Shown: positions 55,285 through 60,185, numbered from the stretch's first letter. The stretch: 64,000 bases of DNA from Acidobacteriota bacterium (GCA_963663035.1 OY760074.1:1440001-1504000), one strand, 5' to 3'. Program-made: numbers and translations. The notes: a model not told the origin generated them from the sequence alone.

Positions 55285-55672
55285 CCGGCAAGTAGAGAGG
55301 GTGATCGCCTTTCGGGCCCGGCCTGGAAGGAGGAAAGTCCGAGCACCACAGGGCAGCGTGCTTCCTAACGGGAAGGGGGGGTGACCCTACGGAAAGTGCC
55401 ACAGAAAACATACCGCCTGAGAATTCTTAGGTAAGGGTGAAAAGGTGGGGTAAGAGCCCACCGCTTCGATGGTGACATCGAAGGCACGGTAAACCCCACG
55501 CGGTGCAAGGCCAAATAGGCTCCGTGTTGTACTGGCCCGGTTAGTCCATCGAGTTTACTCGATGGAGGCGGAGCGGGTAAGCCGCTTGAGGATTGGGGCG
55601 ACTCAATCCCTAGAGGAATGATCACCGCCCTGAAAAGGGATACAGGACTCGGCTTACATCTCTACTTGCCGG
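55285..55672 (+). ncRNA. rnpB: RNase P RNA (type A)
   Basis: GAGGAAAGTCCG, GAAAGTGCCACAGAAA, GGTAAACCCC, ACAGGACTCGGCTTA; P1 helix ccggcaagtagaga/tctctacttgccgg. Confidence 0.97.
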
Positions 55673-55762: not shown

Positions 55763-55839
55763 GGGGACGTAGCTCAGTCCGGAAGAGCGCCTGACTCGCA
55801 CTTAGGAGGTCGAGGGTTCGAATCCCTTCGTCTCCACCA
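55763..55839 (+). tRNA. tRNA-Ala (CGC)
   Basis: Cloverleaf, G3:U70 pair, anticodon loop CTCGCAC, CCA end. Confidence 0.96.
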
Positions 55840-55850
55840 CCCTTGCTTGG

Positions 55851-57145
55851 TGCATTCCGGACACATAGGTTACAGTTTATTCCGAAGACATAGGTAACAC
55901 CTTTGCACCAAAAGGGTTATTTATAGGTTCAAACCTTCTACTGTCTTCGTCAAAGTAACCGAGGTCGTATTCCATAAACGACACCAGCCAAATTTTCTCT
56001 TTGACCTCTTTGATTCCAACATCTTGACCAGCAAACACCGTGCTGAAGTTGATCTTTTGACTTTTCATACAGATTCTGCCGCAGCTGGTGACGGTCACGG
56101 TGCGATCGTGCATGGGGTACTCGACGCGCCCGATTCCTCGGTAGGGACAAGATGCGGGAGTATAGACCTCGGACGGAAACTTCATGCCCAGGGCCTCATG
56201 AGGTCTCTCAGTATTGTATTCCGCCTGAAAGGCATTAAACCTCTCTTGCTGCTGAAGAAGGTTGTGGGCAGCGGGAACGACTGTGGCCTTCTTGAGGGTG
56301 AGATGAAGGCGCTCATGCCTTCCGTTCTGCTCGGGATGGCCGGGCTTGATCCTCTCGATTCGGATTCCTAGCCTAAGCCACCAGACGGCCAGTCGACTGA
56401 GTCCAAACAATCCGTTGGGTGATGCAAAAGGGACTCCGTTGTCCGTGCGGATCGCTTCCGGCAAACCTAACTCTTGAAAGGTTCTCTCGAATACGGGGAA
56501 AGCACCTCTTTCCTTAACACTGTCGAGAGCCTCGATGGCGAGCAGATAACGGCTGGCGTGATCGCTCACGGTGAGAGGATAACAGTACCGTTTGTCTCCC
56601 AGCATGAACTCTCCTTTGAAGTCGGCAGACCAAAGGTCATTGGGATTCTGGCTGCTGGACAATCGAGTCCCCTCTGCCTTGAACCGTCGCCGTTTTCTAC
56701 AGTTCACCAGGCCGTTGCGATCCAGAACCGCGTGAACTGTGCTCACCGCAGGCGGCCGTACATTCGGAAACCTACGAATCAGGAGCGCCCGAATCTTGGG
56801 AGCTCCCCAATACGGCTTCTCTCGCTTTAGCCTGACCAGGGTCCGTTCCACCTGTTCGGGCAGTTGGTTTCCGTAACGATGCGGCTTGCGGCTCCGATCC
56901 ACCAGGGCGTAAGCGCCGGTGTTTTGATAGCGGTTCCAAATCTTGTAGCCCGTCTTTCTGGATATCCCAAACTCCTCACACAGACGGCTCATGGACTCCC
57001 CATCCAACAGCTTCGCTATAAATCTCATTCTCTCGTCCATCACACAGATCTCCTTCCATGGCATCTCTGGGCACCTCCCAGAAGAAGCCTATAAGTGTTA
57101 CCCATGTGTCCGGTATAATTTGTTACCCATCTTTCGGAATGGGCA
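55851..57145 (-). mobile_element. IS481-family insertion sequence (transposase 55877-57064)
   Basis: MPWKE start, WSADFKG, RTDNG, PEQNGRHER; tandem subterminal repeats; CTTGG duplicated at 55846-55850 and 57146-57150. Confidence 0.93.
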
Positions 57146-57263
57146 CTTGGTGCCACGGATCTGATAGCATTAGGTCGGAGTCCAATTTCGACAGGTGGTT
57201 TGCCGGTGGCTGTCCGGTTGCCGGTCGCCTCCAGAAGCCGAACCCTTCAGCTAGGAGAAGAAT

Positions 57264-57656
57264 ATGGCTTGCCAACACCATCATAAATGCTCCCCTGTCA
57301 TGTTTGCAGCGCTACTCGTGATCACCAGTGCTTTCGTGACTTTCGGTCAAGGTCGGGAGGTCTACGCAAAGCGCTTTGAGATTCTGGATCTGATGAACTT
57401 GAAGCCCGGAATGAATGTGGCCGAGATCAAGAAGGCACTGCGACCGGACGGTCTCTTTTTGCTGATTGATGCCGAGCGGATCACGGGTCTTACCTCGGAA
57501 GGCCGTATGGAGATGGTGCGGTCCGGCAAAGGCACCTTCACCGACGAAATGATCAATGCGGGCTTCAAGTTGGAGGAGGAAATTGACCTGTTCGAGCTCG
57601 ACTACGTCCTCAAGTTCCGCCACCGGCAGATTCAGGAAACGTCGGATACCATGTAG
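57264..57656 (+). pseudogene. Exported class I methyltransferase with an in-frame deletion of the SAM-binding core
   Basis: LKPGMNVAEI is joined directly to KKALRPDG; the GxGxG motif and central strands are missing. Confidence 0.7.
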
Positions 57657-57711
57657 CATTGAAGTATATGCATTTTCTCCGAACAGGGAGAAAGTGGGAT
57701 TGGAGGCAAAA

Positions 57712-58189
57712 ATGAATCGTGGTGCCGCGCGCATGCGAATGACACTGATTGGTGCAGTCCTCACACTTATTGCGAGCATGACCTTATCGGGTCAACGGTT
57801 TCCAACCCAGGAACCCGGTCATTGTCTACAAGAGCCCGACCTGAGGGTGCTGCGTCAAGTGGGTGGGTCACCTACAATCCAAGAATTTTAAGGTCAATAC
57901 GCTTGCAGCGACGAATACCCAGATCAACACCATTAAGGACAAGTATGGGGTGCCGCGGAATCTCCGCTCCTGCCACACCGGACTGGTGGAAAACTATGTG
58001 ATCGAGGGCCACGTACCGGGAGATGTAATCCTTCGTCTATTGATAGAGAAGCCGGCTATAGTCGGAATTGCGGTTCCAGGTATGCCGGTGGGTTCCCCGG
58101 GGATGGAAGGTCCGAATCCTCAACCCTACAGTGTCTATTCGTTCGACAAAGAGGGCCGCGTGAAGGTCTACGCCCAAATTAATCCCTGA
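57712..58189 (+). CDS. DUF411 metal-binding protein; in-frame TGA at a conserved Cys (candidate selenoprotein) and a +1 frameshift after the signal peptide
   Basis: VYKSPT-TGA-GCCVKWVGHL...SCHT...IEGHVP...AVPGMPVGSPGME. Confidence 0.75.
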
Positions 58190-58333
58190 ACTAGTTTACC
58201 TTCGTTTAGCCCGCATTTCTCACACCAGGTCGCCACGGAGCGAGGGTAAGCGGGCGAAAAGACACTATCCGGATAGGCCGCTTCGTCGATGGGGCTGTGA
58301 GCTGGTCTGTTGCAGGTTACGGGTGACTTTCGA

Positions 58334-58723
58334 TCAGTCCTCGAAGCCGTCCCAAAGAGCCTCCCCATACTTATTGGGCTCAGCCTTTCCGGGCAGTAAG
58401 GCGAGAAACAGTGGGCTTATGAATCCGACCAACGGAATAGCCAGGGTGAGGTTCATCCACCCAGACCAGCCAATGTCGTGCCACCGTTTTGTGAAAATCG
58501 CTAGCGACATCCATATGCTTACGCCAAGGATAATCACCATAGGAGCAATCAGGGGAGCAACCAGGAGAAGATTGGGGTCCCCAGTAAGTGGAATGAGACC
58601 TCCAATCTCGATAATTAAGCCCAGCAACATCACTGCGAATATGATCACTGAAAAGTGTGCTACCCAAAATGTGCCAAGATCTATGCGACCCTTAAATGAA
58701 AATAAGATTTCACCGACTGACAT
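58334..58723 (-). CDS. DUF805 family membrane protein
   Basis: LFSFKGRI, KRWHDIGWSGW, NKYG. Confidence 0.9.
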   Translation of the reverse strand: MSVGEILFSFKGRIDLGTFWVAHFSVIIFAVMLLGLIIEIGGLIPLTGDPNLLLVAPLIAPMVIILGVSIWMSLAIFTKRWHDIGWSGWMNLTLAIPLVGFISPLFLALLPGKAEPNKYGEALWDGFED

Positions 58724-58936: not shown

Positions 58937-59177
58937 GTACTAAAAAATGCAAAGGTAAACTGTGAATGAGCGCAGGGATTTACTATAGCTCTGCTGCTTG
59001 CCATAGAGGCAAGTCCTTCTTCTTTAGAGGGCTTGCCTTTTTTTCTGCCAACCTTTGATTGAAACAATTTTGAGCCAAGTTGATCTAAGAGGAAAGGTAG
59101 AACAGGTTCGGCATATCGTCAGAGAACTTCTATAGACTTTATCCTGGGTTTTTTTGCAAGGAAAAGGAGGGATTGTC

Positions 59178-60185
59178 ATGAAACTCAACAAGTACAACGC
59201 AATCTTTGTTCTCCTGGTGTTCTCTTTCAGCACCCCGGTGATGCTTTGGGCTGCACAGGAGACAGGCACCTTGCCCACCATTCAGGCTCCCCCTGGAATG
59301 ATGGAAACCAAAGGTGTGGTGGTCGAACGCTTACCTGACGGCTTCACCTTGCGCAATGAGCGGGGTTTAGAACTCGCCGTCACCGTCACGGATCTAACCG
59401 TCATCAAGGAAAAGAAACGCAATTTTTTTCGTAAGGCCATCGACTATTCCTCACAACAGCTTCACCTGGGTCTCAAGGTCCAAGTGGAGGGCCATGGTGA
59501 CCGCTGGGGTGCTCTGGTGGCACACGAGATTAAGTTCACTCAGGACGACCTCAAGATTGCCCAGATCATCTCTTCACGGGTTTCACCTGTAGAGATGCGT
59601 GTGCAGGAGGCTCATCTTCGTCAAGACCGTCTCGAGGAACAGAGTGAGGTCATGTCAGGCCACATAACGGAATTGAATGAGGCTTTCGGGATAGCACGAG
59701 GTGAAGCCCAGGATGCTCGAAGTACTGCCGATCGAGCGCTTTCCCGTGTCGATCGCACAGATGACCGCATTTCCGCACTTGACGAGTACACGGAGATGCA
59801 GTTTCTCAGCATCCAGTTTGACTTCAATAGTGCAAACCTTTCACCGAATGCCACAGCAAAGCTCGATGCACTTGGCAGTCAGGTAAAGGGTGTCAAAGGG
59901 TTTCTGATCGAGGTGAGAGGATTTGCTTCATCGGACGGAGACAGTGACTACAACATTCGCCTGAGCGAGCGTCGAGCTGAGTTGGTGGTGCGGTACCTGG
60001 TCGAGAACCTCCAGGTTCCCTTACGACGAGTCGTCACACCACACGGATTCGGAGAGATGAGCCCAGTGGCCGAGAACTCGAGTCTTCAGGGACGCAGAGA
60101 GAATCGCCGGGTGGAAGTTCGCGTGCTCCTCAATCAGGGCCTGGAGTCAGCCCATCTGGATGCCATGTACAAACCCCTGAAGTAG
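59178..60185 (+). CDS. OmpA-family peptidoglycan-binding protein
   Basis: Signal peptide, FDFNSA.L, YNIRLSERRA, ENRRVEV. Confidence 0.9.
   Translation: MKLNKYNAIFVLLVFSFSTPVMLWAAQETGTLPTIQAPPGMMETKGVVVERLPDGFTLRNERGLELAVTVTDLTVIKEKKRNFFRKAIDYSSQQLHLGLKVQVEGHGDRWGALVAHEIKFTQDDLKIAQIISSRVSPVEMRVQEAHLRQDRLEEQSEVMSGHITELNEAFGIARGEAQDARSTADRALSRVDRTDDRISALDEYTEMQFLSIQFDFNSANLSPNATAKLDALGSQVKGVKGFLIEVRGFASSDGDSDYNIRLSERRAELVVRYLVENLQVPLRRVVTPHGFGEMSPVAENSSLQGRRENRRVEVRVLLNQGLESAHLDAMYKPLK

Follow-up and report, generated by a model that had tools for sequence, protein, structure and literature searches.

CopG is a periplasmic, thioredoxin-like protein that binds a tetranuclear copper cluster through a CxCC motif and two methionine residues and contributes to anaerobic copper resistance, as set out in the review passage devoted to it (PMC7558416). 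Oxidation of Cu(I) or delivery of copper to CueO has been proposed as its function in the same passage, which is also the source of what is said below about the roles of individual CopG cysteines (PMC7558416). Metal-related selenoproteins form a second group of relevant systems. The entries on them in a catalogue of prokaryotic selenoproteins (PMC13188914) include the Cu/Zn efflux transporter SO_0444 with a UxC motif, a CopZ-family 2Fe-2S protein, SaoT, the MerB-like SaoL and a putative mercuric transport protein. Here we describe a DUF411 gene from an Acidobacteriota bacterium in which a TGA codon stands in place of the first cysteine of the CxCC motif. The gene lies in a window of 64,000 nucleotides, the whole stretch of DNA analysed, and positions are counted from its first letter. 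The explanation that we favour, and hold to be probable, is that the locus is a CopG (DUF411) gene of a selenocysteine (Sec) branch whose only copy in this genome is frameshifted by an extra C and is most likely a recent pseudogene. The features on which this account draws are the following:

57702–57706, plus strand: Shine–Dalgarno-like GGAGG, 5 nt before the ATG at 57712, read directly from the sequence
57712–57816, plus strand: ATG and signal-peptide-like N terminus; close relatives have a similar N terminus, there in frame with the domain
57814–57817, plus strand: frameshift site CCCG where the signal peptide meets the mature domain, one base more than in relatives; possible +1 slip site
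57818–58189, plus strand: mature DUF411/CopG domain in the +1 frame (Pfam PF04214, CopG PDB match, AF2 model)
57842–57844, plus strand: UGA, putative selenocysteine codon at the first position of C-x-C-C (U-G-C-C)
57859–57875, plus strand: candidate SECIS hairpin of 7 bp with a GGU loop, within the codons for K-W-V-G-H-L

An earlier note on this DNA had placed the TGA at 57842–57844 in the DUF411 frame at the conserved first cysteine, and the translation and the Pfam DUF411 match both agree with this placement. With TGA read as U, the domain frame reads ..VIVYKSPT-U-GCCVKWVGHL.. and stays open up to a TGA stop at 58187–58189. The signal-peptide-like frame that begins at ATG 57712 is one base out of register with the DUF411 domain; the same note had located this break near 57814, and the frames read as it claimed. 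Followed without a shift, the frame of ATG 57712 reaches TAA at 57889–57891 and gives a product of 59 amino acids. The domain could conceivably be made without its signal peptide, as a cytoplasmic Sec-containing CopG, from a non-canonical start after 57782 or by re-initiation, given that its frame is open from 57782 and contains an in-frame ATT at 57821–57823. However, between the last upstream stop (57779–57781) and the TGA this frame contains no ATG, GTG or TTG, and the stretch from 57782 holds no ribosome-binding site. Every relative that was read has an in-frame signal peptide, and CopG is periplasmic according to the review passage (PMC7558416). We regard a cytoplasmic product as very improbable.

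The 129-residue stretch obtained by reading through the TGA scored 85.6 bits with Pfam DUF411 (PF04214; E = 1.9e-24), above the gathering cut-off of 27, and phmmer aligned it to the CopG structures 6wis and 6wje over 120 residues (E = 3.2e-28); in this alignment, the TGA falls on the first cysteine of C-G-C-C. An AF2 model built on a 58-sequence alignment had a pLDDT of 95.7 and put U15 between a strand (residues 7–11) and a helix (residues 16–27). Foldseek superposed this model on CopG (6wje and 6wis) with a TM-score of 0.86–0.90, an rmsd of 1.5–1.7 Å and 39–40% identity; beyond the CopG chains, it returned only weak matches to glutaredoxins and thioredoxins. In the predicted structure, the Sec position, after strand 1 and just before helix 1, is that of the nucleophilic cysteine of the thioredoxin CxxC motif. 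C17, C18, M95, M102 and the C-H-T and E-G-H motifs are invariant in the 58-sequence alignment and are kept here.

The earlier note had proposed looking for recurrence of the TGA at this codon. Relatives were found by six-frame searches of genomes with the DUF411 domain as query. Among 61 related genomes, there were 12 hits in 11 genomes, of which 9 had exactly one TGA; these 9 were 40–72% identical to the query, came from three families and all had the TGA at the first codon of C-x-C-C, and the remaining 3 had TGC at that codon. Of 401 genomes sampled from the phylum, 50 yielded 52 hits, 24 of them with one TGA, and reading all 24 placed it at the first cysteine of CxCC in each. A further scan covered the contigs of 185,579 GTDB species genomes, one genome per species, and 18 of the best 80 loci taken from it were TGA forms. 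The record labels of these 18 are Acidobacteria/Vicinamibacterales, Binatia, Deltaproteobacteria, Tectomicrobia, Gemmatimonadota, Methylomirabilota/Rokuibacteriota and Chloroflexota/Anaerolineae.

Taken over the homologous loci examined, 49 of 49 TGA-bearing loci had a single in-frame TGA at the same codon and none had a second one, and the other 78 loci had TGC or TGT there. Thus, homologues do not uniformly encode cysteine at this position, one of the outcomes that would have refuted the earlier claim, and the TGA recurs at this codon and nowhere else. The TGA-form loci are 40–72% identical to the query and belong to Acidobacteriota and to metagenome-assembled genomes (MAGs) of at least six other phylum labels. 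Their motif is mostly U-G-C-C, with variants in which D, S, R, E or P follows the U (U-D-, U-S-, U-R-, U-E- and U-P-C-C). The open reading frames of the relatives continue through the TGA and begin with an in-frame, hydrophobic, signal-peptide-like N terminus, and intact copies include several in single-contig genomes of the phylum. TGA is also the ordinary stop codon of the gene studied here (58187–58189) and of several relatives; the genetic code is therefore standard, and an altered code does not explain the in-frame TGA. Recurrence of TGA at one codon is far beyond chance and, together with cysteine codons in the other homologues, is at the level of sequence the classical signature of Sec/Cys homology. 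From this recurrence, which is directly observed, we infer actual insertion of selenocysteine, and we consider the Sec reading of this DUF411/CopG branch very likely.

Consistent with this reading, the genome of this copy, a single 3.59-Mb contig, encodes selA (559 bits), selB (370 bits) and selD (378 bits), and it contains a tRNA-SeC gene with anticodon TCA; all four parts of the Sec machinery that the earlier note had named for a check were found. The selD gene itself has an in-frame TGA at its canonical G-U-x-x-K site (G-U-A-S-K). This gene, itself encoding a selenoprotein, lies outside the 64-kb window at G000:C1:3111136–3112059 on the minus strand, approximately 10 kb from the tRNA-SeC gene (3121533–3121627, minus strand), and selA and selB are located elsewhere on the chromosome. 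Of 30 genomes carrying a TGA form, 29 gave a selA hit, the exception being a genome that is 69% complete; so did 25 of 26 genomes with Cys forms only, and selA therefore does not discriminate Sec from Cys genomes.

An alternative is that the TGA is a plain nonsense codon, or stands for a standard amino acid, and that the family consists of split or dead genes without selenocysteine. The copy studied here is indeed broken elsewhere, its own hairpin is not significant (see below) and the public record P0029 shows W at this site. By contrast, a random mutation would not recur at one metal-ligand cysteine codon in 49 loci, and the recurrence extends down to 40% identity and across several phyla in reading frames that are otherwise open, with a standard code and a complete Sec machinery in the genome. 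This alternative is already strongly disfavoured, and we leave it almost no probability. The proposed U-G-C-C selenoprotein motif is supported by the 49-locus recurrence and by the Sec machinery of the genome.

The earlier note had also described a SECIS-like hairpin downstream of the TGA. Its place and shape stood: the arms at 57859–57865 and 57869–57875 enclose a loop at 57866–57868, seven pairs form, one of them G-U, and the hairpin, which begins 14 nt after the TGA, belongs to the minimum-energy fold. Taken alone, however, it is unremarkable, with a minimum free energy (MFE) of −12 kcal/mol and a z-score of −0.52 against shuffled sequences, 49 of 200 of which folded equally well. Nearly every Sec form has a stable stem–loop 13–20 nt after the UGA, centred on the W-V-x-H-L codons, and the loop of these stem–loops often starts with GGU or GU. 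We compared 39 distinct Sec forms with 71 distinct Cys forms, sets from which the parsing pattern had dropped the Cys loci L040, L071, L085, L102, L112 and L125 and in which two duplicate segments were merged. The mean MFE of the segment from +10 to +48 was −11.6 kcal/mol for Sec forms and −8.2 kcal/mol for Cys forms, and the z-scores against resampling of synonymous codons were −0.71 and +0.02, respectively. A fixed helix (columns 17–24 with 28–35) was paired in 71.8% of cells in the Sec forms, a level reached by 0 of 500 shuffles, whereas the same columns were paired in 61.4% of cells in the Cys forms, which 257 of 500 shuffles reached.

Sequence context around the site differed in the same comparison. 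Of the 39 Sec forms, 37 have leucine (CUN or UUG) at +10, compared with only 35 of the 71 Cys forms, in which methionine (AUG) at this position breaks a G-C pair. GGG serves as the glycine codon next to U in 23 of 34 Sec forms and in 11 of 64 Cys forms, and the UGA is directly followed by G in 37 of the 39 Sec forms. This GGG/G bias may reflect a local context for Sec insertion or shared ancestry. The Fisher and Mann–Whitney values for the Sec/Cys contrasts ignore relatedness and are descriptive only. Phylogenetically independent contrasts of the Sec state with leucine at +10, GGG at +1 and MFE comprised four supported pairs and had no power, and the sign test was non-significant; because only four independent Sec/Cys contrasts are well supported, none of the associations survives a phylogenetically independent test.

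RNAalifold detected no fold common to all 39 Sec forms (−0.22 kcal/mol), because the register of the hairpin differs between clades, with at least three registers. Of the 39 Sec forms, 30 passed loose SECIS-like thresholds that follow the description of bSECISearch and were not taken from a tool, yet 33 of the 71 Cys forms passed them as well. One sub-alignment (A2, 18 sequences) had been selected by the hairpin itself, and its pairs were left uncounted to avoid circularity. The conserved W-V-x-H-L peptide dictates a large part of the stem, and one may speculate that the codons of this peptide amount to a latent hairpin that eases conversion of the site to Sec. As to conservation, a hairpin follows the UGA in the majority of Sec forms, with greater stability than in the Cys forms, but its register varies and the statistics are weak. 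The hairpin lends only moderate support to a SECIS element.

We then considered the frameshift, which the earlier note had attributed to either a pseudogene or a sequencing indel. This copy has the four bases CCCG where a relative has a three-base codon, and thus one extra C in the C-run. A sequencing or assembly error in an intact gene could be suspected from the short homopolymer at this site and from an assembly that consists of one 3.59-Mb contig. However, Logan contigs from three DNA runs (X1, X4 and X7, each from a different study) covered 57500–58129 with 0 gaps; two of the three carry C>A at 57726 relative to this genome and thus stem from another strain. In a metatranscriptome library (X14), a contig of 227 nt is identical over 57727–57953, which documents occurrence in an RNA library but says nothing of strand, level or translation. 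Gap-free contigs from three studies and from the RNA library place the frameshift in the DNA of the species and argue against an assembly error, to which we give next to no weight. Of the two possibilities raised earlier, the sequencing indel is therefore discarded and the frameshift is real, although such contigs could hide rare variants such as a minority intact allele at the C-run. Longer contigs of another organism in runs X1 and X7 (18,137 and 6,949 nt) match only 57824–57873, the 50 bases that surround the TGA and hairpin, with 4 differences; these probably represent a second Sec-form DUF411 gene in the same communities.

With an assembly error set aside, this copy is either broken or dependent on a +1 slip of the ribosome. 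The frameshift is absent from 8 close relatives and from the further homologues read through; 7 close relatives compared at the junction are in frame at that point. It affects the only DUF411 copy in this genome. No second lesion was found in the domain, in which all 25 residues that are invariant in the 58-sequence alignment are kept, and the branch leading to this copy in the tree measures 0.13 against a median of 0.2, so that any decay would be recent. We consider it most likely that this copy derives from a true selenoprotein gene and became a pseudogene recently, with a presumed loss of function. The lack of a second lesion and the occurrence of one frameshifted allele in the strains of three studies are compatible, too, with a gene in use. 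The earlier reading of a Sec-containing DUF411 protein is supported, and none of the three outcomes that the earlier note had set as refuting it clearly applies; the gene belongs to a widespread branch, of which it is probably a freshly broken member.

A gene in use would require the ribosome to slip by +1 at CCC-G (57814–57817), joining the signal peptide to the Sec domain. CCC-N sites are prone to +1 slips, and an upstream Shine–Dalgarno-like element stimulates the prfB shift. Exactly +1 is required here, and peptidyl-tRNA-Pro could re-pair from CCC to CCG, both of which are proline codons, restoring the reading found in relatives; AGGA lies 1 nt upstream of CCC-G. The otherwise intact domain with its 25 invariant residues, the short branch, the status as sole DUF411 copy, the recurrence of the allele in three studies and the RNA-library contig that spans the site all suit this possibility. 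It would entail two recoding events on one mRNA, a +1 frameshift followed by UGA-Sec decoding 8 codons later. The site resembles prfB-type frameshifting in the +1 direction, the re-pairing P-site codon and the purine-rich AGGA upstream, but it lacks a stop or slow A-site codon and is not conserved among relatives. The 0-frame A-site codon is GGU, which is neither a stop nor obviously slow; no stimulatory structure was identified; and contigs cannot show translation. As neither the 8 close relatives nor any other homologue read through has the shift, it has the appearance of an insertion that arose within a homopolymer in this lineage. Given this lack of conservation and an A-site codon that is not slow, we consider expression through such a slip unlikely, as we do the double recoding that comes with it.

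The surroundings of the gene were also inspected. An intact IS481-type transposase of 395 amino acids (55877–57064, minus strand; rve, HTH_32 and LZ_Tnp_IS481 domains) lies approximately 650 bp upstream of the frameshifted DUF411 gene and directly after a tRNA-Ala(CGC) gene (55763–55839) and a class A RNase P RNA gene (55289–55672). Between the transposase and the DUF411 gene, an ORF of 130 amino acids (57264–57656) matched no Pfam family, had no similarity to the methyltransferase upstream of locus L064 and looks like a gene remnant. Downstream are a DUF805 membrane protein (58334–58723, minus strand) and an OmpA-family protein with DUF5666 (59154–60185, plus strand), neither with an evident link to copper or selenium. 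Scans of 57100–58500 for promoters and terminators returned 0 and 0, and Rfam at gathering thresholds found only the RNase P RNA and two tRNAs in the 64-kb window.

How would the protein work in relatives with an intact gene? In our model, their mRNA would encode a signal peptide followed by the mature DUF411 domain, and the UGA would be decoded as selenocysteine by SelB and tRNA-Sec, aided by the hairpin 13–20 nt downstream. Sec in place of the first cysteine of C-x-C-C would then be one ligand of the tetranuclear copper cluster of CopG. In the copy studied here, the extra C at 57814–57817 puts the signal peptide out of frame with the domain and so has most likely inactivated the gene. The exported metal-binding protein proposed earlier would be made by the relatives, which have in-frame signal-peptide-like N termini and homology to CopG; the N terminus of this copy is out of frame. 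Across 13 Sec-form loci, none of 20 neighbouring proteins belonged to a copper family, copA, cusCBA and cueO, to which CopG genes are often but not always linked, were not adjacent, and no gene neighbourhood was conserved; with no copper gene among the neighbours, the copper role is drawn from homology alone. Copper binding by Sec-containing CopG is accordingly a prediction from sequence, and the protein may act in the periplasm in copper handling or Cu(I)/Cu(II) redox chemistry, with selenium as its reactive or bridging chalcogen.

The Sec/Cys column was masked for a tree that comprised 110 distinct domains. On this tree, the label (Sec or Cys) changes at least 9 times, 4 of the changes being forced by well-supported branches, whereas shuffled labels change 32 times on average; Sec forms thus make up several clades with repeated switches. 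Sister pairs of Sec and Cys forms occur within Rokuibacteriota, within Chloroflexota and within one family of Acidobacteriota. One public protein, P0005 (155 amino acids), is full-length, has cysteine at the site and is 90% identical to a Sec form of the same genus, which suggests a very recent Sec/Cys switch. With at least 4 switches, and 9 by the most parsimonious count, the family is a good system for questions about gain and loss of Sec.

Public annotation of the Sec forms is affected by the in-frame TGA. The closest public proteins to an intact Sec form are calls of 108–113 residues that start just after the TGA, and in P0029 the gene caller read the TGA as Trp. None of the 120 public proteins listed, from 3,895 relatives at E ≤ 1e-10, is named a selenoprotein. 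Gene calls that truncate Sec forms or read UGA as Trp could therefore be corrected on a large scale, and the form is common, being present in 24 of the 50 homologue-bearing genomes of the 401-genome phylum sample and in MAGs elsewhere.

A bolder reading combines these elements: that the family is a natural Cu–Se cluster protein, that Sec arose in it several times and that the present copy is expressed through the +1 slip at CCC-G. Repeated origin of Sec from Cys forms would here follow from the W-V-x-H-L peptide, which encodes a latent hairpin at SECIS distance. If true, selenium would ligate a tetranuclear copper cluster or be one of its bridging atoms, and one short mRNA would undergo two recoding events within 10 codons. 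We judge this combination distinctly improbable. Under the favoured reading, a Sec-branch CopG gene that was recently inactivated, this particular copy matters less, as a probable pseudogene of recent origin, provided that the +1 slip does not occur.

The Sec branch of CopG/DUF411 appears to be uncatalogued, although it may be listed under another name in supplements. Table 1 of the 2026 catalogue of 119 prokaryotic selenoprotein families (PMC13188914) contains no entry for DUF411, CopG or PF04214, in agreement with the earlier remark that the family lies outside the known selenoproteins. The main texts on BSepDB (PMC13326102), the GOS selenoproteome (PMC2398784) and eight families in a 2022 preprint (bioRxiv 2022.07.06.499078) likewise make no mention of DUF411, CopG or PF04214, and NCBIfam release 20.0, which includes selenoprotein models, gave no match at E ≤ 0.01. 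A full-text literature search for DUF411 or CopG with selenoprotein or selenocysteine, with most subscription journals and supplements outside its reach, returned nothing relevant. Matches for CopG with selenocysteine mostly concern coatomer COPG. If the Sec reading is true, the prokaryotic selenoproteome gains one more family, absent from Table 1 of the 119-family catalogue (PMC13188914), and Sec in a copper-cluster motif would offer natural U/C pairs with which the proposed redox role of CopG could be tested.

The closest described system is CopG of Pseudomonas aeruginosa (6WIS/6WJE), which shares the family, the fold and the position of C-x-C-C with the present protein. The two methionines of P-G-M-P-x-G-S-P-G-M and the C-H-T and E-G-H motifs of P. 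aeruginosa CopG are all conserved here. The two differ in the first residue of the motif, which is cysteine in P. aeruginosa and would be selenocysteine (U-x-C-C) here, and in the frameshift of the present copy. The metal-related selenoproteins in the catalogue resemble the Sec forms in that Sec is proposed to be a metal ligand or to lie beside a metal-binding cysteine, as described in the entries on these proteins (PMC13188914), but they have no sequence relationship to the DUF411 copy as judged with the models of NCBIfam release 20.0.

A further parallel is provided by the thioredoxin-fold UxxC selenoproteins, among them Sec-containing thioredoxin, glutaredoxin, DsbA-like protein and thiol:disulfide interchange protein, in whose catalogue entries Sec is likewise the N-terminal residue of a CxxC-type motif (PMC13188914). 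In these proteins, too, Sec sits at the start of helix 1, as it does in our model, and the U-G-C-C found here contains U-x-x-C. They also have Cys homologues and bacterial-type UGA decoding with a hairpin just downstream. By contrast, the present protein belongs to a different Pfam family and has an extra cysteine (U-x-C-C), and its motif ligates a copper cluster in the solved CopG homologue, whereas that of the UxxC selenoproteins forms a simple dithiol/disulfide. Sec insertion of this type and a fold of this type are both known; what is new is their combination, together with the possibility that selenium is a ligand of a copper cluster.
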